A stretch of DNA of 64,000 nucleotides from an uncultured Collinsella sp. (lineage in GTDB: Bacteria > Actinomycetota > Coriobacteriia > Coriobacteriales > Coriobacteriaceae): the NCBI GenBank assembly GCA_900549085.1, contig URMO01000002.1, forward strand, positions 30,678 to 94,677. Direction: 5' to 3'. Both the position numbers and the translations under genes were made by a program. This document shows, piece after piece, positions 15,810 through 35,602 of this stretch (positions within the stretch are counted from its first letter, which is position 1; each line of letters opens with the position of its first letter). The notes under the pieces are model-generated. The model made no database searches. It was not told the origin of the DNA and saw only the letters and a list, made by a program, of their open reading frames with translations.

Positions 15810-16187
15810 GTCTTGATCTGTAACACTAGCTCGGCAGATACGGGTCTAGATGTTACAGATCGAGACAAACCCCAACCCCGCGAGACAACATCTCAATCTG
15901 TAACAGTAAGGGGTCAAAAACCTCTCTAGATGTTACAGATCAAGACATTTGAGTTGACCCCGGGCAGTCTGTCTTGATCTGTAACAGTTAGAGGTCATTT
16001 TCCCTGCTAGATGTTACAGATTGAGACATTGAGTTTCCTGCCAGTTGTTTGTCTCGACCTGTAACAAATACTCGGTAAAACGGGATCTAGCTGTTACAGA
16101 TCGAGACGTTAGTTTTCGGCTGAAATGTTCGTCCAAATCTGTAACAGCTATGGTTCAAAAACCGATCCAGATGTTACAGATTGAGAT
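15810..16187. repeat. Family-1 palindromic repeat array no. 1 (5 hairpin units, strict 80-bp period)
   Basis: Five repeats of GTCTYGATCTGTAACA - 25-nt loop - TGTTACAGATYGAGAC, separated by 23-nt linkers. Unit starts at 15810, 15890, 15971, 16051 and 16131. Confidence 0.9.
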
Positions 16188-16264
16188 GATTTGTTGGGGC
16201 GGACCATCGGTCAACCAACTACCCTCATCTGTAGCGAGATGTCATACATTTATTCTGTACTAGA

Positions 16265-16291
16265 CACCCCCAGGGGGTATGGGTGTATAGT
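16265..16291 (+). promoter_or_regulatory. Candidate CsoR operator overlapping the copA promoter
   Basis: GC-tract pseudo-palindrome ACACCCCCAGGGGGTAT lies between TAGACA (-35-like) and TATAGT (-10-like), ~50 nt upstream of the copA GTG. It resembles known CsoR operators of the form TACCC-N-GGGGTA. Confidence 0.6.
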
Positions 16292-16338
16292 ATCGGCAGG
16301 TTAACAATTCCAACACCAAACAACAGGAAGGAGAAGCC

Positions 16339-18684
16339 GTGGCTCAAGATAAGTTCGACGTGGGCGGCATGACATGCGCCGCCTGCCAGGCGCACGTGGA
16401 CCGCGCCGTAAGCAAACTCGACGGCGTCCAAAGCGTCGCGGTCAACCTACTCGCCGGTTCCATGATGGTCGACTACGACCCAGCGCAGGTCTCCCCCGAC
16501 GATATCTGCACCGCCGTCGACCGCGCGGGTTACTCGGCCTCACTCGTCGATGCGAGCACCGGTGCCGCCGGCTCAAACGGCAGCACGCAAGCCAGGTCCG
16601 GCGCCGCCCACATGGAGTCGCCCACCAAAAAATTGGAGGCCGCCGCCTCTGCCATGCGCACCCGCCTCATCGTCTCGATCGCATTCCTTATCCCACTGTT
16701 CTACATAGGCATGGGACACATGCTCGGCTGGCCGCTGCCTGGCATTTTCACCGACCATACCCACAGCATGACGCTCGCCCTCACCGAGCTCGTCCTGCTC
16801 ATCCCCATCGTCTATGTCAACGACGCGTACTTTATCAACGGGTTTAAATCGCTCGCGCACGGCGCGCCCACCATGGACGCCCTTATTGCCGTGGGCGCCA
16901 CCGCTTCCATCGCCTGGTCGCTCTACGCCATGTTCATCATGGCCGACCAGCTGGCCACAGGTCAGGTGCACGAGGCAATGATGACAAGCATGGACAACCT
17001 CTATTTTGAGAGCGCCGGCACGATCCTGTCGCTCGTCACCGTGGGCAAATACCTCGAGACGCGCAGCAAGTCCAAAACCGGCGGCGCCATCGAGGCGCTC
17101 ATCGACCTGGCGCCCAAGACTGCGACCGTCGTGGCGGAGGAAGGCAGCGAGACCACCGTCGACGTCGACAGCATCCTTCCCGGCCAGGTCCTACGTGTGC
17201 GCCCCGGCGAGTCCATCCCCGTCGATGGCGTGGTGCTCGAAGGCAGCTCGGCCGTGGACGAGAGCGCGCTCACCGGCGAGTCTATCCCCGTGGAAAAGAC
17301 CGCCGGCGACACCGTCAACGCCGCCACGGTCAACCGCACGGGCTCGTTTACCTTCCGCGCCACGCGTGTGGGCGCCGACACGTCGCTTGCCAAGATTATC
17401 CAACTCGTCGAGGACGCCAACGCCACCAAGGCGCCCATTGCCCGCATGGCCGACAAGGTCGCCGGCGTGTTCGTGCCCGTGGTGTTCGCGATCTCGGCCG
17501 TGACCTTTGTGGTGTGGATGGCACTGACCAGCAGCGTGAACGAGGCGCTCACCTCCGCCGTGGCCGTGCTGGTGATCAGCTGTCCGTGCGCACTCGGCCT
17601 GGCCACGCCCGTCGCCATTATGGTGGGCACCGGCAAGGGCGCCGAGATGGGCATTCTGTTCAAGAGCGCCGAAGCGCTGGAGAATCTGCGCAGCGTGGGC
17701 ACGGTGGTGCTCGATAAGACGGGCACGGTCACCCGCGGCAAGCCTGCCGTGACCGATATCGTGGTAGCCACGCGCACTGACGGCTCGCCCGCCATGAGCG
17801 AAAAGGCACTGCTCAAGCTGGCCGCTGCGCTGGAGCGCTCAAGCGAGCACCCGCTGGCCGAGGCGATTATGGCCGAGTGCGAGGCGCGCGGAATTGTCGC
17901 GCGCATGGTCGAGGACTTTGCCGCCGTGCCCGGTCGTGGCGTTACGGCGCGCGAGGGGCAGAATGTCATCGCCGCCGGCAACGTGCGCCTGATGGACGAG
18001 CTGGGCGTTACCGTGCCCGCGGGCCTTGCCGAACAGCTCGCCGCCGAAGGCAAGACACCGCTGTTCTTTGCCAAGAACAGCGAGCTTGTCGGTACCATCG
18101 CCGTGGCTGACGAGGTCAAAGAGACGAGCGCCGAGGCCATCGCCGCGCTGCGTTCGCTCGGCGTCGACGTGCGCATGCTCACCGGCGATAACCGTGTGAC
18201 GGCCGAAGCAATCGCCCGCCGCGTGGGACTGAACAGCAAGCAGGTCATCGCCGACGTCCTCCCCGCCGACAAGGAGCGCCACGTCCGCGAGCTGCAGGAT
18301 GCGGGCGGCAAGGTCGCCATGGTGGGCGACGGCATCAACGACTCCCCCGCCCTGGCGCGCGCCGACGTGGGCCTTGCTATCGGCACCGGCGCCGACATCG
18401 CCAAAGAAGGGGCAGATGTGGTACTCATGCGCAGCGACCTCATGGACGTCGCCCGTGCCATCGAGCTTTCGCGCGCCACGATTCGCAACATCAAGCAGGA
18501 CTTGTTCTGGGCGCTGTTCTACAACGGCATCGGCATTCCGCTGGCGGCGGGCGTGTTCTTCCCCCTCACCGGTTGGCAACTCTCGCCGATGTTTGGCGCC
18601 GCGGCCATGAGCCTGTCGAGCGTGTGTGTCGTAAGCAACGCGCTGCGCCTGCGAACCTTTAAGCCATCAGTTGCGGTGAAATAA
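16339..18684 (+). CDS. copA: Copper-translocating P1B-type ATPase
   Basis: 781 aa, GTG start with GGAAGGAGAAG SD. N-terminal [14 protein letters not shown] motif ([11 protein letters not shown]), [15 protein letters not shown]. Confidence 0.95.
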
Positions 18685-18735
18685 GGCGTAACATGCTTAG
18701 CTAAACCGCTATTTAGTCCGTATTCCACCGCAACT
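18669..18735. repeat. Family-2 palindromic element, copy i (supplies the last codons and stop of copA)
   Basis: AGTTGCGGTGAAATAA ... TATTCCACCGCAACT; the copA C-terminus ...SVAVK-TAA is encoded by the left arm. Confidence 0.85.
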
Positions 18736-18763
18736 TTAGGTACTCAACGAAAAGGAGATAATC

Positions 18764-18985
18764 ATGAACTACATCGTTAAAACGTCTGGCCTTATGTGCG
18801 GCCACTGCGACGCCACCGTCGAGACGGCGCTGCTCAACGTAGCCGGCGTGACCGACGCCGACGCCGATCACGAGACCCAGACCGTCCAGGTGGAGTGTGC
18901 CGACACCGTGACCGCCGAGCAGCTCGCCGCCGCTGTCGAGGCCGCGGGCGAGAAGTTCCATGCCCTGTCCGTGACCGCAGCCTAG
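18764..18985 (+). CDS. copZ: Copper chaperone, HMA domain
   Basis: 73 aa, GLMCGHCDATVE metal-binding motif, AAAAGGAG SD. Confidence 0.9.
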   Translation: MNYIVKTSGLMCGHCDATVETALLNVAGVTDADADHETQTVQVECADTVTAEQLAAAVEAAGEKFHALSVTAA

Positions 18986-19060
18986 CTGCCACCGCACCAG
19001 CAGGCACCGCTGTCGGCCGACATAGCCGCCCAGCAACCACCGCTCAACCAGCCCTTCAGA

Positions 19061-19127
19061 AGTTGCGGTGAAATAGTTCCTGTTTTAGCGCTCCAAGCCC
19101 TCAATCAAGAACTATTTCACCGCAACT
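19061..19127. repeat. Family-2 palindromic element, copy ii (between copZ and csoR; loop in inverted orientation)
   Basis: AGTTGCGGTGAAATAG ... CTATTTCACCGCAACT with perfect 16-bp arms. The loop CTGTTTTAGCGC is the reverse complement of the AAAACAG motif seen in the other copies. Confidence 0.85.
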
Positions 19128-19171
19128 GAGGGCGAGGTATTTGAAGGATTGACCAGAAACGAGGACCCGCC

Positions 19172-19444
19172 ATGATGGCAGACCATAAATCGGTGACCCG
19201 CATGCTCAAAACGGCACGTGGTCAGATCGACGGCATCCTGCGGATGGTCGAGGAGGACCGCTACTGCGTCGATATTTCCACGCAGCTCATGGCCACGCAG
19301 GCGCTCATCGCCCGCATCAACGCCGATGTGCTCAAGGCTCACATCGAGGGCTGCGTCGCCTCGGCCATCGAATCGGGCGACGAGGAACTCAAGGCCGCCA
19401 AGCTCGCCGAGATAGAGCGCGTCGTCGACAAGCTCGCCAAGTAA
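19172..19444 (+). CDS. csoR: CsoR/RcnR-family metal-sensing transcriptional repressor
   Basis: 90 aa; CsoR family fold (DUF156) with conserved Cys/His (C...H...C) positions. Sits directly downstream of copZA. Confidence 0.85.
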   Translation: MMADHKSVTRMLKTARGQIDGILRMVEEDRYCVDISTQLMATQALIARINADVLKAHIEGCVASAIESGDEELKAAKLAEIERVVDKLAK

Positions 19445-19590
19445 TTGGGGCATTGGGGACAGACTTCTTTGCACCGTCTTGGTGCTCCGGGGACAGGTAT
19501 GTTTGCACCACATTGGCGCAGATTAACCTGTCCCCCTTGCTCTAAATCGGGTATAAAGGCGTGCAGCATATCGAACGAAAGGCAATTTGC

Positions 19591-20064
19591 ATGAATGACT
19601 TTATGAAGGGTCGCAATGGTGCCGACGAGCTCACCATCGTGATGGGTCTTGCCGGCATCGTCATCGCGATGATCGGATCGATAGCCCGCATCCAGTGGCT
19701 CAGCTGGATCGCCATCGCCGTCATCGTGATTGGCGTGCTGCGCGGCCTGTCCAAAAATATCGATGCACGTCGCAAGGAGAACGAGGCCTTTGTCGCCGGC
19801 TCGGCTAAGGTCCCCGGCTTGGGCAAGTTCGTCGCCAGCTTGGGCGGCGGGGCCGCAGCGGCCAGCACCTCGCGCGCGGCCGGCACCAGCAAGGAAGACT
19901 TTGAGCGTGCCAAGCGCACGGCCAAGAAGATGTGGAAGGGTCGCAAGACCACGGCATACCTCAAGTGCCCTAACTGTGGCCAGATGCTCTCCGTCCCCAA
20001 GGGCAAGGGCAAGATCCGCGTCACCTGTCCCAAGTGCCACGCCAAGATGGAGACGCGCTCATAG
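19591..20064 (+). CDS. Small membrane protein with C-terminal zinc ribbon
   Basis: ~157 aa from ATG MNDFMKG. Two TM helices, then CPNCG...CPKCH. Confidence 0.55.
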   Translation: MNDFMKGRNGADELTIVMGLAGIVIAMIGSIARIQWLSWIAIAVIVIGVLRGLSKNIDARRKENEAFVAGSAKVPGLGKFVASLGGGAAAASTSRAAGTSKEDFERAKRTAKKMWKGRKTTAYLKCPNCGQMLSVPKGKGKIRVTCPKCHAKMETRS

Positions 20065-20156
20065 CCGCCATACCATGGGACAAAATAAAAGCCGAGGCCT
20101 CGCACTGGGACCTCGGCTTTTTTGATTATGACAAAGGGGCCGTCCCTTTGTCACAC

Positions 20157-21527
20157 CTATGCCACGCCGTCGCGGGCAAGCTCCTCGGCCAGCGCCTCAG
20201 CCGGCATGGCCATAATCGTGTCGAGCTCGTTATCAACCTCGGGAATACGCTTCACCTTGAGTTTGCGCACCAGATCACCGCGACACATCACGTGTATCGG
20301 CTCACGCAGAGCGCACAGGTCATCGAGCGGGTTCTCGCGCGTCACCAGGATATCGGCGGCCTTACCGCACTCGATCGTGCCGGTCTCGTCGCCCAACCCC
20401 AGTAGCTCGGCATTGATCTGCGTAGCCGTATGCAGCGCGAAGGCGTTGCTAACGCCGACATACTTGGCAAAATAGGCCACCTCACGCCACATGTCATACT
20501 GCGTCACGAACGGGCAGCTCGAATCCGTGCCTAGGCCCACCCTAACACCAGCTTCCAGTGCGGCACGGGCGCTCTCGATGATGCCCGAGCACACGATGTC
20601 GCCGTTCTTCTTTTGCGTATCGGTCGAATGAGTCTTTTCCGGATCGAGCAATACAAACGGCAGCGCCGGGCTGATAGTGCAGGTCACACTCGGTGCGCGG
20701 CCCTCGAGCTGTGTTCCCGCGGCGCCGCGGTACAGCTCCAGGATCTCAGGTGTCAGCGGAGCGCCGTGCTCGATCGTATCGACGCCAGCCTGAAGCGCGG
20801 CCTTCACACCTTCGGTGCTCTCGACATGAGCCATGACCGGAAGGCCAACCTCGTGCGCCGCCTTGCATGCCGCCGCGGCAACCTCCACGGGCATACGCAG
20901 CACGCCCGGCTCGCCCACCTCAGTCGCATCGAACACGCCGCCCGTTACGAACAGTTTAATGACATCGGCACCGCGCGCATACAGGTCGCGCACCTGTTCG
21001 GCCGCCTCGGCGGGACTGTTAGCCACCTGGGCGAACAAGCCAGCACCATGGCCCCCCGGCACCGTAACGCCCGTTCCCGGCGCCACCAGGCGAGGACCTT
21101 GATACTTGCCGGCATCGATAGCATCGCGCACGGCAAGATCCGCAAACAGCGGGTCGCCCGCGCCGCGCACCGTAGTCACGCCACTTGCCAGCTGTTGTTG
21201 GGCGCTGCCCTTAAGAATGTGGCGCACGATGGCGCGCCCCACGGGATTATCGAGCTTCTTCATCAGCGCGCCCGCATCGCCCGCCGAAACCGGCTTGCCC
21301 GAGCCGCATAGATGCACATGCATATTGATGAGGCCTGGCATGAGATACGCCCCTGCCAGGTCGATGACCTCGGCACCTGCAGGCGCCTGCGTCACGGCAC
21401 TCGGCCCCATCCACGTGATGAGACCGCGCTCAACGGCCACGGCCATATCGGGCTGCGGCTCCATATGTTCCGAACCATCCAGGACGGTCGCATTGATAAA
21501 CAACGTGGAACGATCGGCAGACGCCAT
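20157..21527 (-). CDS. Amidohydrolase-family metal-dependent hydrolase
   Basis: ~456 aa from ATG MASADRST, which has a GGGAGGAG SD. HVHL metal-binding motif and an amidohydrolase-like fold. Confidence 0.8.
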   Translation of the reverse strand: MASADRSTLFINATVLDGSEHMEPQPDMAVAVERGLITWMGPSAVTQAPAGAEVIDLAGAYLMPGLINMHVHLCGSGKPVSAGDAGALMKKLDNPVGRAIVRHILKGSAQQQLASGVTTVRGAGDPLFADLAVRDAIDAGKYQGPRLVAPGTGVTVPGGHGAGLFAQVANSPAEAAEQVRDLYARGADVIKLFVTGGVFDATEVGEPGVLRMPVEVAAAACKAAHEVGLPVMAHVESTEGVKAALQAGVDTIEHGAPLTPEILELYRGAAGTQLEGRAPSVTCTISPALPFVLLDPEKTHSTDTQKKNGDIVCSGIIESARAALEAGVRVGLGTDSSCPFVTQYDMWREVAYFAKYVGVSNAFALHTATQINAELLGLGDETGTIECGKAADILVTRENPLDDLCALREPIHVMCRGDLVRKLKVKRIPEVDNELDTIMAMPAEALAEELARDGVA

Positions 21528-21679
21528 ATCGAGCTCCTCCCTCACGATTAACTTGAACATTTGTCCATTATCATCTAATGCAGCGAACTAAAGTCAAACA
21601 TATCGGTTAACGGAGGGAAGAGAGAGATGTAGGGACAAACGGAGACAGCGCGGCGTTGCTCTGGCCGTGCTGACGAAAC

Positions 21680-21975
21680 ATCTCAATCTGTAACAGATAC
21701 GGCCCCAAACACCCCCCATATGTTACAGATTGAGATTTTCGGTCGTGCCTCCAGCCTTTGTCTCAATCTGTAACAGATAGACCGATTTTTGGCCATCAGA
21801 TGTTACAGATCGAGATATTCCCAACCCCGTCGTCAAACGTCTAAATCTGTAACAAGTAGACAGGTTTTCGGCCTCTAGATGTTACAGATTGAGATCTTTT
21901 AGCGGCAGCCAACCTTCCGTCTTGATCTGTAACAGTTACGAGGCCAAACGGTCCCCTGTTGTTACAGATTGAGAC
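21680..21975. repeat. Family-1 palindromic repeat array no. 2 (4 units)
   Basis: Same 16-bp stem, 25-nt loop and 23-nt linker architecture with an 80-bp period. It ends 9 bp before the stop of the downstream DUF559-like gene. Confidence 0.9.
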
Positions 21976-21983
21976 GGTGCGCC

Positions 21984-23054
21984 TCAGCGCCCATACCACT
22001 GCCGCCTCCATTGCCCAGCCAAATCGGCCCGTCGCGGAATACCTGCTAGCCTCATCTTTTCAACCAGCTTCCCCGGATTCTTGAGCTCATCAAACGTAAA
22101 CCGAAGCACCTTGTGCCCGAGCATTGTCAGATGAGACTCTCGCTGACGCTCTGCCACGAACGGGTCGACCGACTCCCGACCTTCGCCGTTCTGCAAGGTA
22201 TACTTCCCCTTTCCGTCGAGCTCGCCAATCACGCACGTCCCGTCCTCGAGCCTCCAGAAATAATCGACCCGAAACACCTGGCTCGAATCGAGCGGATCGC
22301 GAAACTCCACCTGCAACTCCGGAACCGGAAAGCCGTATGCAATAAAGAATGCTCGGAACCGAGACTCGCCACCGTTTTCGGACAGGCCGTCCGCATGCGC
22401 CGCAATCACCTGAGCTCTGCGATACCCTCGTCTGCCCTCGCAATCGGCCTGAAGCCGATTGCAGAGGTCGTCGCGCGACATGCCCTTCGCCCGCAGCGCA
22501 GAATCGGCGATCGCCAGACCATACGAAAACGGCGCACGCAGCAGACAATCCTCCACCGTGCGCCAAAACGGCGTCACCCGCACGCCGCCGACGCGCTCAA
22601 GCGCACCCGCCGCCTGCGGACGCAAAAGCCGGCATCCTGCACTCAGCGGCACCGAGCAACCTGTCTTAACAAGAAATCGCGGCCCAAGCAGATCATTCGG
22701 CACCTCCAGACCCCACAAAAGTGCCGCGTCATAACCCCAAAACGCCCAATCGGGGTGAAACTCGGCAAGCCCCTTGATGGTCAACCGCGCCCGCTCCGGC
22801 GGCGTCAATGCATCCCATTCATGCTGAAAACAGAATAGGTGCGATTCGGGCTCCGCAATATCGTCTGTACCCACATGGCGCCGCAGCCACATGAGCTCGG
22901 CATTGTCGTGCGTCACAAGCAGCACGCCTTGTTCAGCCGCCTCCGTGAGTCTGGCAAGCATCCTATTCCGCGCCAAGGTGTTACGTGTTGCATGCTTGTG
23001 TTTGAGAACGGTATTAGACACTTCCATCACCACCACATCGGAGAAATGGGCCAT
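21984..23054 (-). CDS. Hypothetical protein with a C-terminal DUF559/Vsr-like endonuclease-fold region
   Basis: C-terminal ...ESRFRAFFIAYGFPVPELQVEF...VDYFW...GELDGKGKY resembles the DUF559 domain seen in AbiEi-like proteins. Start is uncertain (the ORF-track start is TTG; no clear SD). Confidence 0.5.
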   Translation of the reverse strand: MAHFSDVVVMEVSNTVLKHKHATRNTLARNRMLARLTEAAEQGVLLVTHDNAELMWLRRHVGTDDIAEPESHLFCFQHEWDALTPPERARLTIKGLAEFHPDWAFWGYDAALLWGLEVPNDLLGPRFLVKTGCSVPLSAGCRLLRPQAAGALERVGGVRVTPFWRTVEDCLLRAPFSYGLAIADSALRAKGMSRDDLCNRLQADCEGRRGYRRAQVIAAHADGLSENGGESRFRAFFIAYGFPVPELQVEFRDPLDSSQVFRVDYFWRLEDGTCVIGELDGKGKYTLQNGEGRESVDPFVAERQRESHLTMLGHKVLRFTFDELKNPGKLVEKMRLAGIPRRADLAGQWRRQWYGR

Positions 23055-23089
23055 CGCCGCTGTTGCCGCCGCTGACAAATGTCTTGATC

Positions 23090-23379
23090 TGCAACAGGAA
23101 GACAGTCTTTGAGCCTCTAGATGTTACAGATCAAGATCTTTCGGCACCGCGTCCAACCTTTGTCTCGATCTGTAACAGGTAGGTCGAATTTTGGCCTGGA
23201 GATGTTACAGATTGAGACATTCCCCCAGCCAGGTTCCAAACGTCTCGATCTATAACAGTTAAGCGTTCTCCAGGCCCCCAAACGTTACAGATTTAGACAA
23301 ACCAGCAGAGCCCAATCATTCGTCTCGATCTGTAACAGTTAGACCGTGTTTTGACCGCCAGATGTTACAGATCAAGACA
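23090..23379. repeat. Family-1 palindromic repeat array no. 3 (4 units, two with point-mutated stems)
   Basis: One unit has GTCTTGATCTGCAACA and another GTCTCGATCTATAACA as slightly degenerate stems. The array begins ~12 bp upstream of the DUF559-like gene start. Confidence 0.9.
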
Positions 23380-23420
23380 AACCGGCGGAGAACGACGCGG
23401 CGGCGCCAGTCCAACGAGCC

Positions 23421-24128
23421 CTACTCCCATTCCTGTTCGTAGATGTTGAGCGACTTCACATACCGTCCCTGGGCACCCATGATGTCGCGGACCAGCCTCA
23501 GAAAGAAGCTGATACACGAGGTGTCGAAACCATCTTCCAGATCTTCCGGATGAACGGCGCCAGGCCCGTCGACCGCCGTATCGCTCAGGCGCGCAATGTC
23601 GTAGAGGTAGAGCTGTCCCGCCGTCAGCCAAACATCGTCAACGCACGCGATGCGCACCGCAATCGCACCATCGCGCCAGTGCTCTTTTTGCACGATATGT
23701 GGGTCGTAGACATCAAAACGTCGGTCGGTGCGCGTGTCGCGCAGCGCGACCATACCAGTCACAGGATCCTTGTCCAAAATGCCAAAGCGCGAGAAATACT
23801 GCGTGTCGCGCACCTGTTCGAGCCGTCTGAGCGAAGCAGGCGAAAGCGACGTCGGCGGCTCGTCCACATACAGCTCAAGCAGCGTCTTGCCGTGGCAATA
23901 GGAGCGCTCAAACAGCAGCCAATCGGTAAATGCCATGTTATAGGCCATGATTTCGCTTTGCGAAGGCTCCTCGCAATAGCTGAGCCATGGATCGACTATC
24001 ACTTCGAACTGTGTGCGCGCCGACTCCAAAAACTGGAACTTGCGCAGCATCCAAAACTGGGCCATGTCGGCAATATCGTTACCGACGGCCTCGGTCAGAC
24101 GTCCCCGGTCCAAAACATAATCAGCCAT
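23421..24128 (-). CDS. Hypothetical protein
   Basis: 235 aa ORF with GAGGAGG SD; no recognisable motif. Confidence 0.5.
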   Translation of the reverse strand: MADYVLDRGRLTEAVGNDIADMAQFWMLRKFQFLESARTQFEVIVDPWLSYCEEPSQSEIMAYNMAFTDWLLFERSYCHGKTLLELYVDEPPTSLSPASLRRLEQVRDTQYFSRFGILDKDPVTGMVALRDTRTDRRFDVYDPHIVQKEHWRDGAIAVRIACVDDVWLTAGQLYLYDIARLSDTAVDGPGAVHPEDLEDGFDTSCISFFLRLVRDIMGAQGRYVKSLNIYEQEWE

Positions 24129-24401
24129 GACATCCTCCTCAAACTGATGAACCTCAATTTGAGCTTACGAGGAGGGCAGGTGGTCGCCGCCAGCGCGGGC
24201 GAAATGGGCATAAGGCTGCAAACCAGATGCTGACCGAATACTTGACGGAACGCTTGACCGATACGTTATACCGAAGCAAAACCCCAGTTAAACATAGGCA
24301 AATAAACAGAGATTTTGAGCTTGTCAGCCGCAGCCATCACGAAAACAGCAAGGCACCGCGAGCCCGCACGTCAGCAAATGAGCAGTCAGACGTTAAGGGG
24401 T

Positions 24402-24470
24402 GTCCCCAACGACTAGACAAAAAAGCGCGTCCCCAATGACTAGTCGTTGGGGACGCTCTTGAATGACTAC
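24402..24470. repeat. Family-3 palindromic element (GTCCCCAACGACTAG core), copy a
   Basis: GTCCCCAATGACTAGTCGTTGGGGAC is a perfect palindrome, with an upstream half-copy GTCCCCAACGACTAG. Confidence 0.85.
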
Positions 24471-24471
24471 C

Positions 24472-25953
<1,482 letters not shown>

Positions 25954-25958
25954 GGCAC

Positions 25959-28900
25959 TTACGCCTCCTTCTTGGTCGAAGCAACAGAGCTGGCAGCCAC
26001 GGGCGCAGCGCCCGCGGCACCGCCCGCGACATCGAAGCGAGCGACATCCGCGGCGCTCGCGCGACCGGTCACAATGTCAAACGCCAGCTCCTCTGCCTGT
26101 GCATGCGTCTTGCCCACGGCCTCGGCCGCAGCGACAATCGCCAGCACGCGCTCGTACTCGGTCGGAATGACCTTCACAAAGTGCTTGCTCATCGTCTCAA
26201 AGCTGTAGAGCAGCTTAATACCGCGCGGGCTCTGCGTCGCGTCCACGTGCTCCTGGATGAGCGCACGAATCTGCGCCAGCTCGCCGGCCGTCGGGGCCTT
26301 GAGCTCAACGCTCTCGTGGTTCACACGGGCATCGAGCGTGCCGTACTGGTCAAAGACATAGGCCACGCCACCCGTCATGCCGGCGGCGAAGTTCTGCCCG
26401 ACCTCGCCCAGGATGAGCGCCAGACCGCCCGTCATGTACTCGCAGCCATGGTTGCCGCAGCCCTCGACCACCACGGTGGCGCCGGAGTTGCGCACGCCAA
26501 AGCGTTGGCCGGCCAGGCCGTTAATAAAGCCGCGGCCGCTCGTGGCGCCAAAGAATGCAACGTTGCCCACGATGATGTTCTCGTCGAACTTGTAGGTCGC
26601 ATGCGGGTTGGGGCGCACCGACACCTCGCCGCCCGAAAGGCCCTTGCCAAAGTAGTCGTTGGCGTCGCCGCACACGTTGAGCGTAATGCCGCGCGGCAGG
26701 AAGGCACCAAAGCTCTGACCGGCCGAACCATCGCAATCGATGGTGATGGAGCCGGCGGGCAGACCCTCGGGATGTGCCTTGGTCACCGCGTTGCCCAGGA
26801 TGGTGCCCACGCAGCGGTTGACGTTGGCGATATCGGCGCGGAAGCGAATCGGACGCAGGTGCGCACGGGCATCGGCCGTATAGGGCACAAACAACGTGGA
26901 GTCGAGCGTCTTGTCGAGCTCGCTGTCCGCGGCCATCTGCGGCAGGAAGTGGCGACCGTCGGCACCCGGGATATGAGCGCCGAACTCGCAGGTCGCGCTC
27001 GCCAGCACGGGCGACAGATCGAGCAGGTTGGCCTTGCGGTTGCCCGGGACCTCGAGCTGGCGCAAGCACTCGGGATGGCCGACCATCTCGTCGACGGTGC
27101 GGAAGCCCAGGCTCGCCATGACCTCGCGCAGCTGCTCGGCAACAAAGAGCATAAAGTGCTCAACGTGCTCGGGCTTGCCGCGGAAGCCGCGACGCAGGCG
27201 GCAGTTTTGCGTGGCGATGCCGGCCGGGCAGGTATCCTGCTGGCAGTCGCGCTGCATGAGGCAGCCCATGGAGATGAGCGGCATGGTCGCGAAGCCAAAC
27301 TCCTCGGCGCCCAGCAGACAGGCGACGGCAACATCGGTGCCGTCCATGAGCTTGCCGTCGGCCTCGAGCACCACGCGCGAGCGCAGGCCATTTTGAAGCA
27401 GCGTCTGCTGGGCCTCGGCAAGGCCGAGCTCCAGCGGCAGGCCCGCATGCCAGATGGAATCGCGCGCCGCGGCACCCGAGCCGCCGTTATGGCCGCTAAT
27501 CAAGATCTTGTCTGCAGCACCCTTGGCCACACCGGTGGCGATGGTGCCGACGCCGGCCTCGCTGACCAGCTTGACCGACACGCGTGCGCCGGGGTTGGCG
27601 TTCTTAAGGTCAAAGATCAGCTCCGCCAGGTCCTCGATGGAGTAGATGTCATGGTGCGGCGGAGGCGAGATCAGGCCGATGCCGGGCGTGGACTGACGGA
27701 CCTCGGCGATCCAGGGGTAGACCTTCTTGCCGGGCAGGTGGCCGCCCTCGCCGGGCTTGGCGCCCTGGGCCATCTTGATCTGAATCTCGAAGGCGCTGCA
27801 CAGGTAGCGGCTCGTCACGCCAAAGCGCGCGCTTGCCACCTGCTTGATGGCGGAGTTCTTGGAGTCACCGTTAGCCAGCGGGGTCTCGCGGCGCGGATCC
27901 TCGCCGCCCTCGCCGGAGTTGGAACGGCCGTGCAGGCGGTTCATGGCGATGGCCATGCACTCGTGCGCCTCTTTGCTGATGGAACCGTACGACATGGCGC
28001 CGGTGTTAAAGCGGCGAACGATGTTGAGCGCGGGCTCCACCTCGTCGAGCGAAACCGGCGTGCGGTCGCTGGCATCAAAGTCCAGCAGGTCGCGCAGGCG
28101 CACGGCGCGGCCGGTGCGATGCAGGCGGGTGCTGTACTCCTTAAAGGTGTCGTAGCTGTCCTCACGGCAAGCGGTCTGCAGCAGGTAGACGGTCTGGGGG
28201 TCAATCAGGTGATCCTCGCCACCGAGCGGACGCCACTTGGTCAGACCCAGCGTAGGCAGCTGATCGGGAGCCGGGCTCTTAAGGATGGCGAGCGCGGCAT
28301 CGTAGCGCTCGTTTTGCTCGCATTCGACGTCCTCGACACCCATACCGCCCACACGGCTCACCGTGCCGGCGAAGTACGCGTTGACGAACTCCGACGTAAA
28401 GCCCACGGCCTCGAAGATCTGCGCCGAATGGTAGCTCTGCACCGTGGAGATGCCCATCTTGGACATGATGGAGACGATGCCGGCGGTCGCAGCCTTGTTG
28501 TAGTTGGCGATGCCCTGCTCGGCCGTCACGTCTAGGTCGCCGCGTGCCGCCAGATCACGGATGCACGCATGCGCGTTGTACGGATAGACGCCGCTCGCGG
28601 AGTAGCCCACCAGCGCCGCAAAGTCGTGCGGGGACACGGCGTCACCACACTCCACCACGATGTCGGCAAAGGTACGCACGCCGGCGCGGATCAGGTGGTT
28701 GTGCACGCAGCCCACGGCGAGCAGCGACGGCACGGGTACCTCGCCCGCAGCGGCACGATCGCTCAACACCACGATGTTCACGCCGTCGCGGACCGCAGCC
28801 TCAACGTCCTCGGCAAGCTGCTTGAGCGCAGCCTGCAGTGCGCCCTCGCCGGCATCGCGGCGGTACACGGCACGGAAGCGACGGGTCTTAAAGCCCACGC

Positions 28901-30656
28901 GGTCGATGGCGCAGATACGCTCGAACTCCTCCTCGCTCAGCAGCGGACGCTCCAGGCGCACCAGCTGGCAGGCCGTGCGGGAGTCCTCGAGCAGGTTGCC
29001 GTGGTTGCCCAGGTAGAGCGTGGTCGAGGTGACCATGTGCTCGCGCAGGGCATCGATCGGCGGATTCGTGACCTGGGCGAACAGCTGATAGAAGTAATCG
29101 AAGAACGAACGCGTCTTCTTGGACAGGCAGGCCAGCGGCGCGTCGATGCCCATCGAGGCGAGCGGTGCCTTGCCCTGCTGGGCCATGGGACGCACGACCT
29201 CGTCAACATCATCCCAGTGATACCCGAGCTTGGCCATACGCACGGCGGCGGGCACCTCGGCGTCCTCGGCGGACGTTGCCGCAACGGGCTCATCAAGCGC
29301 GTCAACGGTCAGCGTCTCCTCGGCAATCCAGTCGCGGTAGGGCTTTTCCTTGGCATAGCGGGCGCGCAGCTCATCGTTGTAGATCACGCGGCCGCGGGCA
29401 AAGTCGACCTCGAGCATCTGGCCCGGCCCCAGACAGCCGCTCGTCAGGATGTTCTCGGGGCTCACCTCGATGGTGCCCACCTCGCTTGCCAGCATAAAGC
29501 GACCGTCGCGCGTCACATAGTAGCGGGCGGGGCGCAGACCGTTGCGGTCGAGGGCGGCACCCAGCGTGCGGCCGTCGGTAAAGGCGATGGCGGCAGGGCC
29601 GTCCCACGGCTCCATGAGCATGGACTGGTATGCGTCGTAGGCGCGGCGCTCCTCACTCAGGCTGTCGTTGTGGTCCCACGGCTCGGGCAGCAGCATGGAC
29701 GCGGCACGCGTGAGCGGGCGACCGTTCATGACCAAAAACTCGAGCACATTGTCCAGAATCGCGGAATCGGAGCCCTCGCGGTTGATGATGGGCATCACGC
29801 GCTCAAGATCGTGCTGCAGCACGGGGCTATACAGATTGGGCTCGCGGGCGCGAATCCAGTTGACGTTGCCCTTGAGGGTGTTGATCTCGCCGTTGTGGAT
29901 GATAAAGCGGTTGGGGTGCGCGCGCTCCCAGCTGGGCGTGGTGTTGGTGGAGTAGCGCGAGTGGACGAGCGCCACGGCCGTCTTGACGGCGGCGTCGTTG
30001 AGATCGATGAAGAAGCGGCGCATCTGCGTGGCAACCAGCATGCCCTTGTACACGATGGTGCGCGAGCTCATGGAGCACACGTAGAAGATCTTGTCGCGCA
30101 GGGCAAACTCGGCGTCGGCCTTCTTCTCGATGGTGCGGCGGCACACGTACAGGCGACGCTCAAAGGCATCGCCGGCGGGCGTGTCGTCCGGACGGCCCAG
30201 GAAGGCCTGCAGGATAGTAGGCATGCAGGCGCGGGCCGTCGCGCCCAGGTCGTGCGGATCGACCGGCACCTCACGCCAAAAGAGCAGTGGCACGCCGGCC
30301 TCGGCGCAACCCTCCTCAAACACGCGACGGGCATCCTCTACGCCCTTGTCGTCCTGCGGGAAGAACAGCATGGCCACGCCATAGTCGCCCTCTGCCGGCA
30401 GAATCTGGCCGCACTTTTGAGCCTCTTTACGGAAAAAGTGATGCGGAACCTGGAACAAGATGCCAGCGCCGTCGCCGGTGTTCTTCTCGAGTCCCGTGCC
30501 GCCGCGGTGCTCCAAGTTGACCAGAATGGACAGCGCATCGTCCAGAATCTGGTGATGGCGCTCGCCGTTGATATCGGCAAGCGCGCCGATGCCACATGCA
30601 TCGTGGTCGAATTCGGGGCGATAAAGGCCCTGCTGCTGAGCGGAATCTGCCTGCAT
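25959..30656 (-). CDS. gltB: Glutamate synthase large subunit
   Basis: 1565 aa. N-terminal class-II amidotransferase (CGIGA nucleophile region), FMN and GXGXG domains; GGGGAGG SD. Confidence 0.95.
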   Translation of the reverse strand: MQADSAQQQGLYRPEFDHDACGIGALADINGERHHQILDDALSILVNLEHRGGTGLEKNTGDGAGILFQVPHHFFRKEAQKCGQILPAEGDYGVAMLFFPQDDKGVEDARRVFEEGCAEAGVPLLFWREVPVDPHDLGATARACMPTILQAFLGRPDDTPAGDAFERRLYVCRRTIEKKADAEFALRDKIFYVCSMSSRTIVYKGMLVATQMRRFFIDLNDAAVKTAVALVHSRYSTNTTPSWERAHPNRFIIHNGEINTLKGNVNWIRAREPNLYSPVLQHDLERVMPIINREGSDSAILDNVLEFLVMNGRPLTRAASMLLPEPWDHNDSLSEERRAYDAYQSMLMEPWDGPAAIAFTDGRTLGAALDRNGLRPARYYVTRDGRFMLASEVGTIEVSPENILTSGCLGPGQMLEVDFARGRVIYNDELRARYAKEKPYRDWIAEETLTVDALDEPVAATSAEDAEVPAAVRMAKLGYHWDDVDEVVRPMAQQGKAPLASMGIDAPLACLSKKTRSFFDYFYQLFAQVTNPPIDALREHMVTSTTLYLGNHGNLLEDSRTACQLVRLERPLLSEEEFERICAIDRVGFKTRRFRAVYRRDAGEGALQAALKQLAEDVEAAVRDGVNIVVLSDRAAAGEVPVPSLLAVGCVHNHLIRAGVRTFADIVVECGDAVSPHDFAALVGYSASGVYPYNAHACIRDLAARGDLDVTAEQGIANYNKAATAGIVSIMSKMGISTVQSYHSAQIFEAVGFTSEFVNAYFAGTVSRVGGMGVEDVECEQNERYDAALAILKSPAPDQLPTLGLTKWRPLGGEDHLIDPQTVYLLQTACREDSYDTFKEYSTRLHRTGRAVRLRDLLDFDASDRTPVSLDEVEPALNIVRRFNTGAMSYGSISKEAHECMAIAMNRLHGRSNSGEGGEDPRRETPLANGDSKNSAIKQVASARFGVTSRYLCSAFEIQIKMAQGAKPGEGGHLPGKKVYPWIAEVRQSTPGIGLISPPPHHDIYSIEDLAELIFDLKNANPGARVSVKLVSEAGVGTIATGVAKGAADKILISGHNGGSGAAARDSIWHAGLPLELGLAEAQQTLLQNGLRSRVVLEADGKLMDGTDVAVACLLGAEEFGFATMPLISMGCLMQRDCQQDTCPAGIATQNCRLRRGFRGKPEHVEHFMLFVAEQLREVMASLGFRTVDEMVGHPECLRQLEVPGNRKANLLDLSPVLASATCEFGAHIPGADGRHFLPQMAADSELDKTLDSTLFVPYTADARAHLRPIRFRADIANVNRCVGTILGNAVTKAHPEGLPAGSITIDCDGSAGQSFGAFLPRGITLNVCGDANDYFGKGLSGGEVSVRPNPHATYKFDENIIVGNVAFFGATSGRGFINGLAGQRFGVRNSGATVVVEGCGNHGCEYMTGGLALILGEVGQNFAAGMTGGVAYVFDQYGTLDARVNHESVELKAPTAGELAQIRALIQEHVDATQSPRGIKLLYSFETMSKHFVKVIPTEYERVLAIVAAAEAVGKTHAQAEELAFDIVTGRASAADVARFDVAGGAAGAAPVAASSVASTKKEA

Positions 30657-30839
30657 CGCGATCCTCCCCTAGGTGTTAGACAGTCAATTGACTAGGCATA
30701 CTAGGTGCATCGCCGGTCCGTTGTGTTTCCCGCCCGTTTCGAAACAATCGCGTAACGCGCGCCCTACGAGTGGACACCGCCGACCTCAAGGGCGGCAACA
30801 AGGACCCCAAATTCGACCTGTAAGCTCACCGCTTCAAAC

Positions 30840-31056
30840 ATCTCAATCTGTAACAGGAAGACCCAATTTCGACGACTAGCTGTTACAGATTGAGATGTTT
30901 TTGAGAGACGGCTCCGAATGTCTCAATCTGTAACACGAAGGGCCGGTTTTGGCGGTCAGCTGTTACAGATCGAGATTTTCCATAGGACCATTTCTTCCTG
31001 TCTCGATCTGTAACACCTAGACCCAATTTCCATCCCCAGTTGTTACAGACCAAGAC
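30840..31056. repeat. Family-1 palindromic repeat array no. 4 (3 units)
   Basis: Same architecture, in the divergent gltB / mntH intergenic region. Confidence 0.9.
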
Positions 31057-31178
31057 ATTTCGGCAGTCCCCTTTCACTATCCTGTCCAAATACAGCAATT
31101 TTGTTAGTCATGGTTAACTTTTGAGCCTAAAACGGGTATCATTTGCGGCGTCAAGCAAACGGCACACAGGAGCGCACC

Positions 31179-32435
31179 ATGCTCAACCATCTCAAACATC
31201 ACTTTGGCTCCCCGCGCACCGGTGGCCACGGCGGACTCGACATCGCACGGCATATCGGCCCCGGACTGCTCGTGACCGTCGGCTTTATCGACCCGGGCAA
31301 CTGGGCCTCCAATATGGCCGCGGGCTCGCAGTTTGGCTACGCGCTGCTGTGGATCGTCACGCTGTCCACGATCATGCTCATCGTGCTGCAGCACAACGCG
31401 GCGCACTTGGGCATCGCCACGGGCATGTGTCTCGCCGAGGCCACGACGCGCCACCTGCCCCGCCTCGTCGGGCGTGCGATACTCGGCAGCGCGTATCTAG
31501 CCACGGTCGCCACCGCCATGGCCGAAGTCCTGGGCGGTGCGATCGCGCTTCAAATGCTCTTTGGCCTGCCCGTACGCGCCGGCTGCGTCATCGTGGCGGC
31601 GGCATCGATTGCCATGCTCATGACAAGCTCCTACAAACGCGCCGAGCGATGGATCATCGCCTTCGTGGGCGTGGTGGGACTTTCGTTTTTAGCCGAGCTT
31701 GCACTAGTCAAGGTCGACTGGCCGCAAGCCGCCACAAGCTGGATCACACCCAGTATGCCCACCGGCTCGGCCGCGATTATCGTAAGTGTCCTAGGCGCGG
31801 TCGTTATGCCCCACAACCTCTTCCTGCACTCCGAGGTCATCCAATCCATGCACTTCGAAGGCCAAGGCGAGCAGGTTATCGAAGAACGTCTGCGCTACGA
31901 GCTCTTCGACACGCTCTTTTCGATGGGCGTGGGCTGGGCAATCAACTCGGCCATGGTCATCCTGGCCGCAACGACCTTCTTTGCGCACGGCATTGTCGTT
32001 GACGACCTCGCCGTCGCAGCGGCTACACTCTCCCCCATTCTGGGCCCGGCAAGCTCGACCATCTTTGCGGTGGCACTGCTGTTTGCGGGACTATCGAGTA
32101 GTGTGACGGCGGGCATGGCGGCGGGAACCATCATCGCGGGCATGTTCGACGAGGAATACGACATCCACGACCGACATTCCTCGATCGGGGTGGCGGCCTG
32201 CTTCGTCGGCGCAGTGGCGGCGTGCTTGGTCGTCCCGAATCCTTTTGAGGGTCTCATTTGGAGTCAGGCGCTGCTGTCGCTTCAGCTGCCAATTACGGTC
32301 TTTGCGCTCATACGACTCACCAGCTCACGCCGCGTCATGGGCAAATACGCCAACTCGCGCCCGCTCAACGCGCTGCTCGTAGGGATCGGCACCATCGTGA
32401 CGATTCTCGATGTCGTGTTGTTGACAGGAATGTAA
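31179..32435 (+). CDS. mntH: Nramp-family divalent metal (Mn2+/Fe2+) transporter
   Basis: ~418 aa from ATG MLNHLK, which has a GGAG SD. DPGNW signature motif; multi-TM. Confidence 0.9.
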   Translation: MLNHLKHHFGSPRTGGHGGLDIARHIGPGLLVTVGFIDPGNWASNMAAGSQFGYALLWIVTLSTIMLIVLQHNAAHLGIATGMCLAEATTRHLPRLVGRAILGSAYLATVATAMAEVLGGAIALQMLFGLPVRAGCVIVAAASIAMLMTSSYKRAERWIIAFVGVVGLSFLAELALVKVDWPQAATSWITPSMPTGSAAIIVSVLGAVVMPHNLFLHSEVIQSMHFEGQGEQVIEERLRYELFDTLFSMGVGWAINSAMVILAATTFFAHGIVVDDLAVAAATLSPILGPASSTIFAVALLFAGLSSSVTAGMAAGTIIAGMFDEEYDIHDRHSSIGVAACFVGAVAACLVVPNPFEGLIWSQALLSLQLPITVFALIRLTSSRRVMGKYANSRPLNALLVGIGTIVTILDVVLLTGM

Positions 32436-32452
32436 TGAGACGGGGCACCTAC

Positions 32453-32599
32453 CCAGGCAAACGTCTCGATCTGTAACATCTAGACATCAAAAGCGGGTCT
32501 AGATGTTACAGATCGAGATCATTCCGAGGGACAGCTCCGTTTGTCTCAATCTGTAACACGTAGGCCCCGTTTTCACTGCTAGATGTTACAGATTAAGAC
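32453..32599. repeat. Family-1 palindromic repeat array no. 5 (2 units)
   Basis: Two hairpin units immediately downstream of mntH. Confidence 0.9.
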
Positions 32600-32976: not shown

Positions 32977-33480
32977 CTAGCCTTGATACGAGGACGCCTT
33001 CGGAGGCGTCTTGCCCTTCAGGACCTTATGGTAGTAATCGTAGGTGAGCGGCGTCTCGCCGCTCAGGCGCTCGGCATCCTCAACCTCGCCAATAAAGATC
33101 AGGTGCGTGCCCACGTCAACAGTGTCAATCAAACGGCAGCTAAACAAGGCCGCCGCGTGCTCGGGCACATAGGGCATGCCCAGAGCCGTCTCGCGGGTCT
33201 CGTATTTGGCAAACTTGTCATAGTCGCTGCTGGTGCGAAACCCAAAGTTGCCAATGTAGAGCATATCGGCCGTCTGATCGATCACGGTCAGCGCAAAGGC
33301 CTTGGCAGACGAGATAACACCAGACGTGACATTTTCCTTGTTCACGGCAACCGAGATGCGCGGCGGCGCGGACGTCACCTGCACCGCCGTGTTGATGACG
33401 CAGCCGGCACGCAGCCCGTCGGCCGCGGCACTCACCACATACAGGCCGCTCGGCATCGTAAAGAACGCAGTTTTGTCCAT
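32977..33480 (-). CDS. Flavin-reductase-like (FMN-binding split-barrel) protein, likely rubredoxin partner
   Basis: ~167 aa from ATG MDKTAFF, which has a GGGGAG SD. The ORF-track N-terminal extension runs through a family-2 palindromic element and is rejected. Flavin reductase / HMW-rubredoxin family. Confidence 0.7.
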   Translation of the reverse strand: MDKTAFFTMPSGLYVVSAAADGLRAGCVINTAVQVTSAPPRISVAVNKENVTSGVISSAKAFALTVIDQTADMLYIGNFGFRTSSDYDKFAKYETRETALGMPYVPEHAAALFSCRLIDTVDVGTHLIFIGEVEDAERLSGETPLTYDYYHKVLKGKTPPKASSYQG

Positions 33481-33607
33481 AATGATCACTCCCCTAACCC
33501 GGGTTGGAACCTCATGGATGTATGTACCCACAAAAAAGGCGACGTCCATACCGGACGCCGCCTTTGAGACATATGTGTCAGAACAGTAAGCAAGATGGAA
33601 CGCCCGC

Positions 33608-33674
33608 AGTTGCGGTGAAATAGGGACTGAATAGCCCCTCAAACAGGCAAAACAGTCCGTATTCCACCGCAACT
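33608..33674. repeat. Family-2 palindromic element (AGTTGCGGTGAAATA ... TATTYCACCGCAACT), copy iii
   Basis: 15-bp arms with one mismatch; loop carries the conserved AAAACAGTCC. Confidence 0.85.
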
Positions 33675-35157: not shown

Positions 35158-35234
35158 TGTGGTAGCCCGTACCAGATTCGAACTGGTGATCTCCGCCTTG
35201 AGAGGGCGGCGTCCTAAACCGCTAGACGAACGGG
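35158..35234 (-). tRNA. tRNA-Glu (anticodon CTC)
   Basis: The reverse complement gives GGCCCGTTCGTCTAGCGGTTTAGGACGCCGCCCTCTCAAGGCGGAGATCACCAGTTCGAATCTGGTACGGGCTACCA. Cloverleaf with anticodon loop CTCTCAA, T-loop GTTCGAATC and an encoded CCA. Confidence 0.85.
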
Positions 35235-35251
35235 CCATATGTAGCAAATGC

Positions 35252-35325
35252 AATGGCTGGGATGGAGGGAGTCGAACCCCCATTGACGGAACCAGAATCC
35301 GCTGTCCTGCCATTAGACGACATCC
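35252..35325 (-). tRNA. tRNA-Gln (anticodon CTG)
   Basis: The reverse complement gives TGGGATGTCGTCTAATGGCAGGACAGCGGATTCTGGTTCCGTCAATGGGGGTTCGACTCCCTCCATCCCAGCCA. Anticodon loop TTCTGGT, T-loop GGTTCGACTCC. Confidence 0.85.
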
Positions 35326-35602
35326 CAATGACTGCATCGCTGCGCTCGGCTGTGCCTTTGCGCAAGAAAGAAATATACGGGAAGTCCTGCCATGACGCAA
35401 GCCCCAATTTTGACTTTTTTGAAATTCGGTCAAATTGGCCTAATTTCGTCCAACCCGTGAAGGACCTGTGAAGCCAAACCGCATGCAAGGGGGCAAAATG
35501 CCGCAAGCGCACCATAGCTACCGTTGGCAGATTCTACCGTGAAAACGATAGCACCAGGCAACACAATCGAAGTATCAATGATCGCGTAGATATCGAGGCA
35601 CC

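Follow-up and report, generated by a model that had tools for sequence, protein, structure and literature searches.

A genus-wide family of 80-bp-periodic arrays of inverted arms in Collinsella, conserved in arm sequence and arm spacing

The intergenic regions of Collinsella (Coriobacteriia) harbor a dispersed, genus-wide, vertically inherited family of repeat arrays in which a short sequence, the arm, recurs in alternating orientation with a period of about 80 bp. We describe the family on the basis of five arrays located in a 64,000-nucleotide stretch of DNA from an uncultured Collinsella sp. (contig URMO01000002.1; hereafter the window, with positions numbered from its first nucleotide) and of the relatives of these arrays in other members of the genus. 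The sequence of the arms and the distance between them are under selection, whereas the pairing of one arm with the next is not. We give an even chance to the view, drawn from comparison of sequences, that the arms are sites at which a protein would recognize specific DNA sequence in a fixed geometry, within arrays that would be remodelled by recombination between arms.

Results

A Dispersed Family of Arrays with Fixed Geometry

A search of the window for the 16-mer GTCTCGATCTGTAACA, with up to three mismatches allowed, returned 36 matches that resolve into 18 inverted pairs, where 0.25 would be expected by chance over the whole window. These 18 pairs, or units, fall into five clusters of five, four, four, three, and two units, all of which are intergenic with respect to the called genes. 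The segment between the two arms of a unit (the loop, if the unit is drawn as a hairpin) is 25 nt long in all 18 units. Successive units are 79–81 nt apart (80, 81, 80, and 80 nt in array 1; 80, 79, and 80 nt in array 2; 81, 80, and 80 nt in array 3; 80 and 80 nt in array 4; and 80 nt in array 5), and hence the linkers that join one unit to the next measure 22–24 nt. The architecture is much as it had been described in an earlier reading of the letters of the window alone (the original prediction): its 18 units in five intergenic arrays, its 25-nt loops, and its period of 80 ± 1 bp are all borne out, and the 23 nt that it assigned to the linkers is close to the range we measured, if too narrow. 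The stems, which it took to be "16-bp perfect," are in fact fully paired in just two of the 18 units; the others have from one to four mismatches, for the most part at positions 1, 5, and 6 of the arm, and the inner 10 bp (ATCTGTAACA and TGTTACAGAT) pair perfectly in 14. Tandem Repeats Finder reports part of array 3 only, missing most of the arrays because their spacers are too divergent.

We scanned one genome per prokaryotic species for the pattern ATCTGTAACA-N24-26-TGTTACAGAT. At least 120 stretches carry it, all of them from Collinsella except for a few that are unlabelled or that come from evidently mis-binned metagenome-assembled genomes. Thus, far from being absent outside the window, the 16-mer marks a family that is dispersed, as had been supposed, and genus-wide. 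Our census was taken from the window and 120 loci (about 0.9 Mb), a unit being scored when both of its arm cores were detected. It comprises 381–388 units in 150 arrays of one to five units each, at some 55–85 distinct intergenic sites, with none inside a gene. The arms of 364 out of 367 pairs are separated by 25 nt, the linkers are 23 nt (142 cases), 24 nt (88 cases), or 22 nt (eight cases) in length, and the arms alternate strictly in orientation. By extrapolation, a genome would contain on the order of 10^2 arrays.

Across the census units the conserved arm is RTCTCRATCTGTAACA, with TCT at positions 2–4 and CTGTAACA at positions 9–16; WWT stands before it, and TAG comes after it at a distance of two free bases, for an extended consensus of (WWT)RTCTCRATCTGTAACAnnTAG. 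Conservation of the arm thus continues into the loop as nnTAG at one end and CTAnn at the other (the base before TAG is C in 46%, T in 28%, and G in 19%), and the outer flanks read WWT and AWW. At its center the 25-mer has an A or T tract that is flanked by GC-rich stretches, and the consensus of the segment is nnTAG..WWWW..CTAnn. Both of the loop classes that had been proposed for the arrays, an A-type and a T-type, do occur, but they represent a single oriented sequence in two orientations: the position weight matrix of the T-type lies at a distance of 0.14 from the reverse complement of the A-type, as against 0.61 from the A-type itself. The orientation of loops in neighboring units is near random (AA, 65; AT, 55; TT, 43; TA, 39). 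The proposal that linkers recur as types proved to be correct, in that paralogous linkers are common to arrays 2 and 3 and, likewise, to arrays 4 and 5. We also observed that the length of a linker tracks the orientation of the loops on either side of it, with 23 nt in 27 of 29 T-then-A cases and 24 nt in 22 of 36 A-then-T cases; this may point to a higher-order unit of about 160 bp or to common ancestry among the arrays.

[quoted passage not shown] Rfam, applied to the whole window at the gathering threshold and to array 1 by E-value, returned for the arrays only chance matches to microRNA-precursor hairpins, and we found no relevant literature on Collinsella repeats, on the Collinsella-1 motif, or on the arm sequence. 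A CRP site in M. tuberculosis that contains GATCTGTAACA was set aside as a chance match in the literature.

Selection on the Arm and Its Spacing

Many of the census loci are orthologous to the window region, with 85–95% identity, and they furnished 56–57 pairs of orthologous arrays having equal numbers of units. In these pairs the arm core has diverged by 2.6% and the outer arm by 6.4%, as compared with 17.4% for the inter-arm segment, 10.5% for the linkers, and 15.1% for the flanks, the arm evolving some 6–15 times more slowly than flanking DNA. Arm positions 2–4 and 54–56, which were not used in the detection of units, have diverged by about 1%. The frequency of insertions and deletions (indels) per kilobase is 14.2 in the non-coding flanks, 5.45 in the linkers, 1.06 in the inter-arm segment, and 0.21 over all arm positions. 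The inter-arm 25-mer, in other words, diverges at the neutral rate and yet suffers 13-fold fewer indels than the flanks, which is to say that, its central A/T tract apart, it is free in sequence and fixed in length. Positions 1 and 6 of the arm tolerate transitions only. We conclude that the sequence of the arm and the spacing of the arms are under selection. A conserved arm, a free 25-mer of fixed length, and arm positions that are restricted to transitions make up the signature of a sequence-specific reader that would engage two sites at a set distance.

Pairing and Transcription

Pairing between the arms, on the other hand, is not under selection. At the position pairs 1/57, 5/53, and 6/52 of the unit the fraction of Watson–Crick combinations is 0.53, 0.64, and 0.54, respectively, and independence of the two arms would give 0.54, 0.66, and 0.50. 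We detected no covariation between the arms at the variable positions or at TAG/CTA, and at most a weak signal in offset registers inside the 25-mer. The 25-mers fold no better than shuffled versions of themselves (−3.5 versus −3.0 kcal/mol), and on the sense strand of arrays flanked by co-directional genes G·U and A·C mismatches are equally frequent (48:48). Array 1 is predicted to fold strongly on both strands (z of about −12, with a mean of −24.5 kcal/mol per unit). Given that neither covariation nor a wobble bias was observed, this folding is to be seen as a by-product of two conserved inverted sites. The absence of covariation across the 57-nt unit and of wobble bias on the sense strand led us to reject a selected hairpin, and compensatory change, by which a structured RNA would be recognized, was not found in the Collinsella arrays.

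These results bear on the possibility that the arrays function at the level of RNA, with transcribed hairpins that would terminate transcription, protect the 3' ends of mRNAs, or give rise to small RNAs. In keeping with such a function are the strong folding of array 1 on both strands, the location of many arrays directly 3' of genes, and a weak bias toward A-rich orientation of the loops on the sense strand (70 versus 43, counts that are not independent of each other). We nonetheless consider it quite unlikely. Besides the absence of covariation and the equality of G·U and A·C on the sense strand, the hairpins lack T-tails, and no terminator-like hairpin with a T-tail was found within the arrays, which are also without a match in Rfam. 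Of the 60 flanks that face the 3' end of a gene, 27 have a separate, good intrinsic terminator after the stop codon and ahead of the array, and at some convergent sites there are terminators on both sides of the array. Thus, many arrays lie outside transcription units, which argues against the roles as transcription terminators or mRNA stabilizers that were among those first proposed for them. Moreover, of 55 sites that could be classified (24 tandem and 18 convergent), 13 are divergent promoter regions, as is the case for array 4, which is located between the starts of gltB and mntH. We also considered whether the orientation of the loops is set by the direction of transcription but discarded the idea in view of the weakness of the 70:43 trend and the non-independence of the counts.

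Remodelling of the Arrays

The number of units in an array changes by recombination from arm to arm. Among 25 sites for which we had two or more orthologues, 15 are variable in unit number, always in steps of about 80 bp. Orthologues of array 1 in other Collinsella have one, two, or five units, those of array 2 have one to four units in mosaics of shared loops and linkers, those of array 3 have two to five, those of array 4 have one to three, and those of array 5 range from a single arm to four units. In the one-unit forms of array 4 the first arm of unit 1 is fused to the loop of unit 3, and these forms are the product of deletion between directly oriented arms. In one locus (L011), the loop found in unit 5 of array 1 duplicates that of unit 3, an instance of conversion.

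The segment between two inverted arms can also flip, although it does so rarely. In the strain from which the window comes, the inter-arm segment of unit 1 of array 5 (positions 32479–32503; TCTAGACATCAAAAGCGGGTCTAGA) is inverted. Six other Collinsella have its reverse complement at the orthologous position, and in three of the six the correspondence is exact; the flip is confined to the 25-mer, the flanks and the adjacent linker being unchanged in orientation. This is the one loop inversion found, as against 182 orthologous pairs of units that have kept their orientation, and on these numbers we rejected frequent flip-flop of the loops as the source of their mixed A/T orientation.

Could the arrays simply be neutral minisatellites (variable-number tandem repeats), with no sequence-specific reader and with arms that are homogenized by unequal crossing-over and gene conversion? 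The shifts in unit number by 80-bp steps are what such repeats would produce, and the conversion in L011, in which unit 5 has been replaced by a copy of unit 3, is a clear example of the process invoked. But homogenization should include the loops and linkers, and yet these differ by 10–17% between orthologues and are nearly unrelated from one unit to another. Nor would it account for inter-arm indels that are 13 times rarer than those in the flanks, for variable arm positions that undergo transitions only, or for the maintenance of one arm at 55 or more unlinked sites. We regard the minisatellite explanation as improbable.

The Five Arrays of the Window

Array 1 (positions 15810–16187, with units starting at 15810, 15890, 15971, 16051, and 16131) lies between a Ser/Thr kinase gene (13683–15767, plus strand) and copA (16339–18684, plus strand). 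Array 2 (21680–21975; units at 21680, 21760, 21839, and 21919) is located between an amidohydrolase gene (20157–21560, minus strand) and an open reading frame (ORF) of 364 codons (21984–23078, minus strand). Array 3, which extends from 23081 to 23378 and not from 23090 as first given (units at 23081, 23162, 23242, and 23322), begins 2 nt from the start of the same ORF and is followed by another ORF (23421–24128, minus strand). Array 4 (30840–31056; units at 30840, 30920, and 31000) occupies the divergent region between gltB (25959–30656, minus strand) and mntH (31143–32435, plus strand), and no credible small ORF ends directly before it. Array 5 (32463–32599; units at 32463 and 32543), whose start had been placed at 32453, lies 3' of mntH, which is convergent here with a flavin reductase gene (32977–33672, minus strand). 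The neighbors of the arrays are ordinary chromosomal genes, for a Ser/Thr kinase, a CopA-type P-type ATPase, an amidohydrolase, GltB and GltD, an Nramp/MntH transporter, and a flavin reductase; SecA, citrate synthase, an RNB nuclease, and a tRNA synthetase are also encoded in the window.

Several other features of the window came to our attention. On the 3' side of array 1 (16199–16245) is a degenerate half-arm, CATCTGTAGCGAGATG, whose counterpart in array 1 of locus L061 is ATCTCAATCTGTAACG and which looks like a decayed extra unit. A palindrome, ACCCCCAGGGGGT, is found at 16264–16280, about 60 nt upstream of copA; we take it to resemble the operators of CsoR-type copper repressors. A near-palindrome, TAGACAGTCAATTGACTAGGC, located directly upstream of the start of gltB (30677–30700), may likewise be an operator. 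Two adjacent tRNA genes are present at 35163–35327 (minus strand), and an L31-Coriobacteria ribosomal-protein leader was recognized by Rfam at 56308–56343 (minus strand; 35.1 bits, as compared with a gathering score of 33). The leader agrees with an origin of the DNA in Coriobacteriia.

Partner Genes, Mobility, and Prophages

A REP-associated tyrosine transposase (RAYT), an IS200 element, or an HUH motif was sought in all reading frames of the window and 130 loci (about 1 Mb), and none was found; nor is there a transposase between arrays in this sample. The 364-aa ORF takes up nearly the whole interval from array 2 to array 3, leaving 8 nt on one side and 2 nt on the other, and its match in Pfam is to DUF559 (endonuclease-like), below threshold, with an E-value of 0.028. 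Paralogues that are 34% identical to it occur at another site (L025, L044, L049, and L086), 1–2 kb away from arrays. We rejected this DUF559-like ORF as a partner enzyme, the Pfam match being sub-threshold and the proximity of the paralogues being at the level of chance for loci that were selected for their arrays. The linkers shared by arrays 2 and 3 give the appearance that the gene sits within what was formerly one array.

The mntH gene is flanked by arrays, 4 on one side and 5 on the other (31057–32462). In locus L027 (2736–5018) an extra gene of 257 codons, whose product is phosphoglycerate mutase-like, is present between mntH and its upstream region. The insert in L027 is about 880 nt long and maps to window position 31168–31175, and a second insert, of about 700 nt, occurs within this interval in L007; arms are absent from the boundaries of both inserts.

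Ten contigs in IMG/VR carry the pattern, and in seven of the ten, those that could be traced, the arrays are in the host DNA that flanks a prophage. Comparison of L121, L123, L124, L125, and L127 with L039 and L100 revealed one Collinsella site at which a prophage has integrated about 75 nt from an array of two to three units, at the junction following ...AATACTGCCACA. The array at this site sits between two convergent intrinsic terminators. With the host–phage junction some 75 nt outside the array, we rejected the arrays as a prophage attachment site.

The presence of copies at many unrelated sites would fit with the units being a non-autonomous mobile element akin to REPINs (REP doublets that form hairpins) or to MITEs (that is, miniature inverted-repeat transposable elements). 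The arms would then be ends, or hairpin signals, for a transposase encoded elsewhere, either a RAYT/HUH enzyme that takes single-stranded hairpins as its substrate or a DDE enzyme that works on TG...CA ends, and successive rounds of insertion and duplication would give rise to the arrays. A short conserved sequence arranged as an inverted doublet is REPIN-like, and clusters of such sequences recall bacterial interspersed mosaic elements (BIMEs) (PMC2817692; PMC3116915). In addition, when read from the linker side a unit has the form TGT...ACA, flanked by CTAG-like tetranucleotides, and several single genes are bracketed by arrays. We judge this explanation to be unlikely all the same. Neither a RAYT/IS200-type motif nor a transposase was seen in the approximately 1 Mb around the arrays, the GTAG or CGTC tag of REPs is absent, and the copies are old, occupying orthologous positions across species, with no target duplication and no pair of empty and filled sites in evidence. 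As for the hallmarks of MITEs, the inverted arms are present, but no direct target duplication is evident, and the sample holds no insertion sequence (IS) with these ends. Furthermore, the fixed spacers of 25 nt and 22–24 nt persist at old loci, and selection must therefore operate at each locus, beyond any master copy. Finally, a loop of 25 nt is atypical for the hairpin substrates of HUH enzymes.

An Improbable Reading: The Segments as Acquired Spacers

Regular spacing, conserved repeats, and variable segments of fixed length are also properties of CRISPR arrays, and the 25-nt and 23-nt segments might accordingly be the acquired spacers of a CRISPR-like or guide array. We scanned the 39 proteins of the window against Pfam and PADLOC and found no cas or defence family, nor any other gene that would be an obvious partner, among the 25 best-represented families of each scan. 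We also scanned IMG/VR with four 21-nt cores taken from loops and linkers of the window. Three of the four had no viral match, and there was none for a reversed-sequence control; the fourth, the core of linker 1 of array 1 (15868–15888), has an exact 21-nt match to one phage family, at the start of an ORF (L131–L134; for example, L133, 5723–5743). This phage, which has a GC content of 58% and carries replication genes of the DnaB-like and DUF1376-like kinds, is without a relative in the phage collection and is seemingly unrelated to Collinsella. Eight other array segments match it at 18 or more positions, as compared with 6–14 for shuffled sequences, and hence there is no excess of matches. 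Two other species already have the same linker, with one difference. The match is probably due to chance. An origin as spacers is, moreover, at odds with the inverted, alternating orientation of the repeats, with the common consensus of the segments and their recurrence as paralogues, and with their inheritance at orthologous positions with ordinary divergence. We consider a CRISPR-like nature extremely improbable, in agreement with the original prediction, which had set it aside: no cas family was among the best-represented families, the repeats alternate, and the segments are degenerate copies that are inherited between species.

Discussion

Of the functions that were proposed earlier for the arrays, that of a binding array for a protein fits the sequence data best. 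According to this model, each arm would be read on DNA by a candidate protein. This might be a DNA-binding protein that acts as a dimer or oligomer, or else a transposase or recombinase, perhaps domesticated, and it would need two inverted arms at a fixed distance from each other. Inverted arm pairs, 25 nt apart, are chained by linkers of 22–24 nt, and the sequence between the arms drifts freely except for the central A/T tract. The arrays grow, shrink, and are reshuffled by recombination or gene conversion between arms, and the segment between two inverted arms occasionally flips. Possible roles for such a system include chromosome architecture, insulation, and the provision of a substrate for mobilization. 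More tentatively, and with the odds against it, we suggest that the arrays are functional chromosomal elements and not selfish DNA, serving as phased docking sites for a Collinsella-specific DNA-binding protein at about 100 intergenic sites and thereby organizing, insulating, or co-regulating their neighbors.

Certain observations weigh against recognition of the arms by a protein. No protein family recurs beside the arrays in the sampled loci, and no binding protein was identified there. At 10 bp the A/T clusters show no significant phasing, the observed value being reached by about 21% of permutations. Gene conversion among copies could explain part of the conservation of the arm, and the detection of units by both cores lowers the apparent divergence of the core, positions 2–4 and 54–56 being unaffected. 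Also, a RAYT or an IS with these ends may exist elsewhere, beyond the approximately 1 Mb inspected.

If the arrays are indeed docking sites, they would constitute an architectural system without a described counterpart in Actinobacteria, in which a putative protein, possibly a domesticated transposase or recombinase, would read two inverted 21-nt arms exactly 25 bp apart. Collinsella ranks among the most prevalent genera of Actinobacteria in the human gut, and the pattern of constraint is unusually clean, with arm and spacing conserved and with pairing and spacer sequence not, which offers a direct experimental handle. The 80-bp differences in copy number between close Collinsella would, in addition, serve as practical markers for strain typing. 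Should a partner protein exist, REP/BIME-type biology, which is known mainly from Proteobacteria, would extend to a new phylum and to a different logic of recognition.

How does the family compare with known repeat systems? Like CRISPR arrays, it displays a conserved repeat at regular spacing and variable segments of fixed length, but its repeats are inverted, its segments are degenerate, vertically inherited paralogues, and its arrays are many, small, and scattered between housekeeping genes. BOX elements of Streptococcus pneumoniae and the mycobacterial interspersed repetitive units (MIRUs) of Mycobacterium tuberculosis are modular intergenic repeats with variable units of 45–80 bp and no known mobilizing enzyme. 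The Collinsella arrays share with them a modular organization, a variable number of units, and usefulness as strain markers; BOX and MIRU elements, however, are direct repeats that are conserved over their full length, whereas the Collinsella arrays conserve inverted arms and spacing only.

Closer parallels are to be found among REPs and the composites built from them, and for the BIMEs of Escherichia coli the binding of proteins, namely IHF and gyrase, is known or suspected. Like E. coli BIMEs, which are described as REPs that are regularly spaced and alternate in orientation, the Collinsella arrays are intergenic clusters of a short conserved sequence in alternating orientation, and in both systems spacers of two kinds alternate and fall into recurring types, and unit number varies between strains (PMC2817692). 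In Collinsella the arms alternate, the gaps are regular (25 nt and 22–24 nt), and linkers recur between arrays and between species; the family is, moreover, dispersed in the manner of REPs and BIMEs, in high copy and between genes, in 120 or more stretches. The differences are equally plain. Each REP of a BIME is a GC-rich, imperfect palindrome of 20–40 bp with a GTAG tag, and the Collinsella arm of 16–21 nt lacks both the palindrome and the tag. The Collinsella spacers keep their length, not their sequence; the arrays often lie in divergent promoter regions as well; no RAYT was found within about 1 Mb around them; and the host is an actinobacterium.

The GTAG/CGTC superfamilies of REPs, 20–40-bp palindromes with a GTAG or CGTC tag that lie mostly between unidirectional or convergent genes, resemble the Collinsella family in being short and for the most part intergenic, and in commonly occurring as oppositely oriented pairs that could form larger folded structures (PMC3733652). 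They have an unpaired tag, stem-loops of 20–40 bp, and unidirectional or convergent placement (PMC3733652), and Collinsella has none of these: RTCTCRATCTGTAACA has no internal dyad, the palindrome arising only across a pair of arms; the census units have nnTAG on the inside and WWT/AWW on the outside, with no CGTC; and 13 of 55 sites are divergent. Tagged REP families have been reported from eight phyla, with Actinobacteria not among them (Di Nocera et al. 2013, PMC3733652). Thus, the original prediction of a BIME-like composite holds for the architecture, with its alternating arms and recurring linkers, but not for strict membership among REPs, there being no palindrome and no tag, and some sites being divergent.

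The REPINs of Pseudomonas fluorescens are likewise inverted doublets of a short conserved sequence that can be folded into one long hairpin, and they too are specific to lineages, have long been inherited vertically, and in some cases form clusters (PMC3116915). The definition of a REPIN includes a cognate RAYT gene that REPINs flank, and RAYT genes are in turn flanked by their REPs (PMC2817692), whereas none was seen in the approximately 1 Mb of Collinsella DNA. Nor is the pairing of arm with arm selected in Collinsella units, and chaining of units in tandem at a strict 80-bp period is their norm. The Collinsella family, in sum, works like a BIME or a REPIN but is not classed as one.

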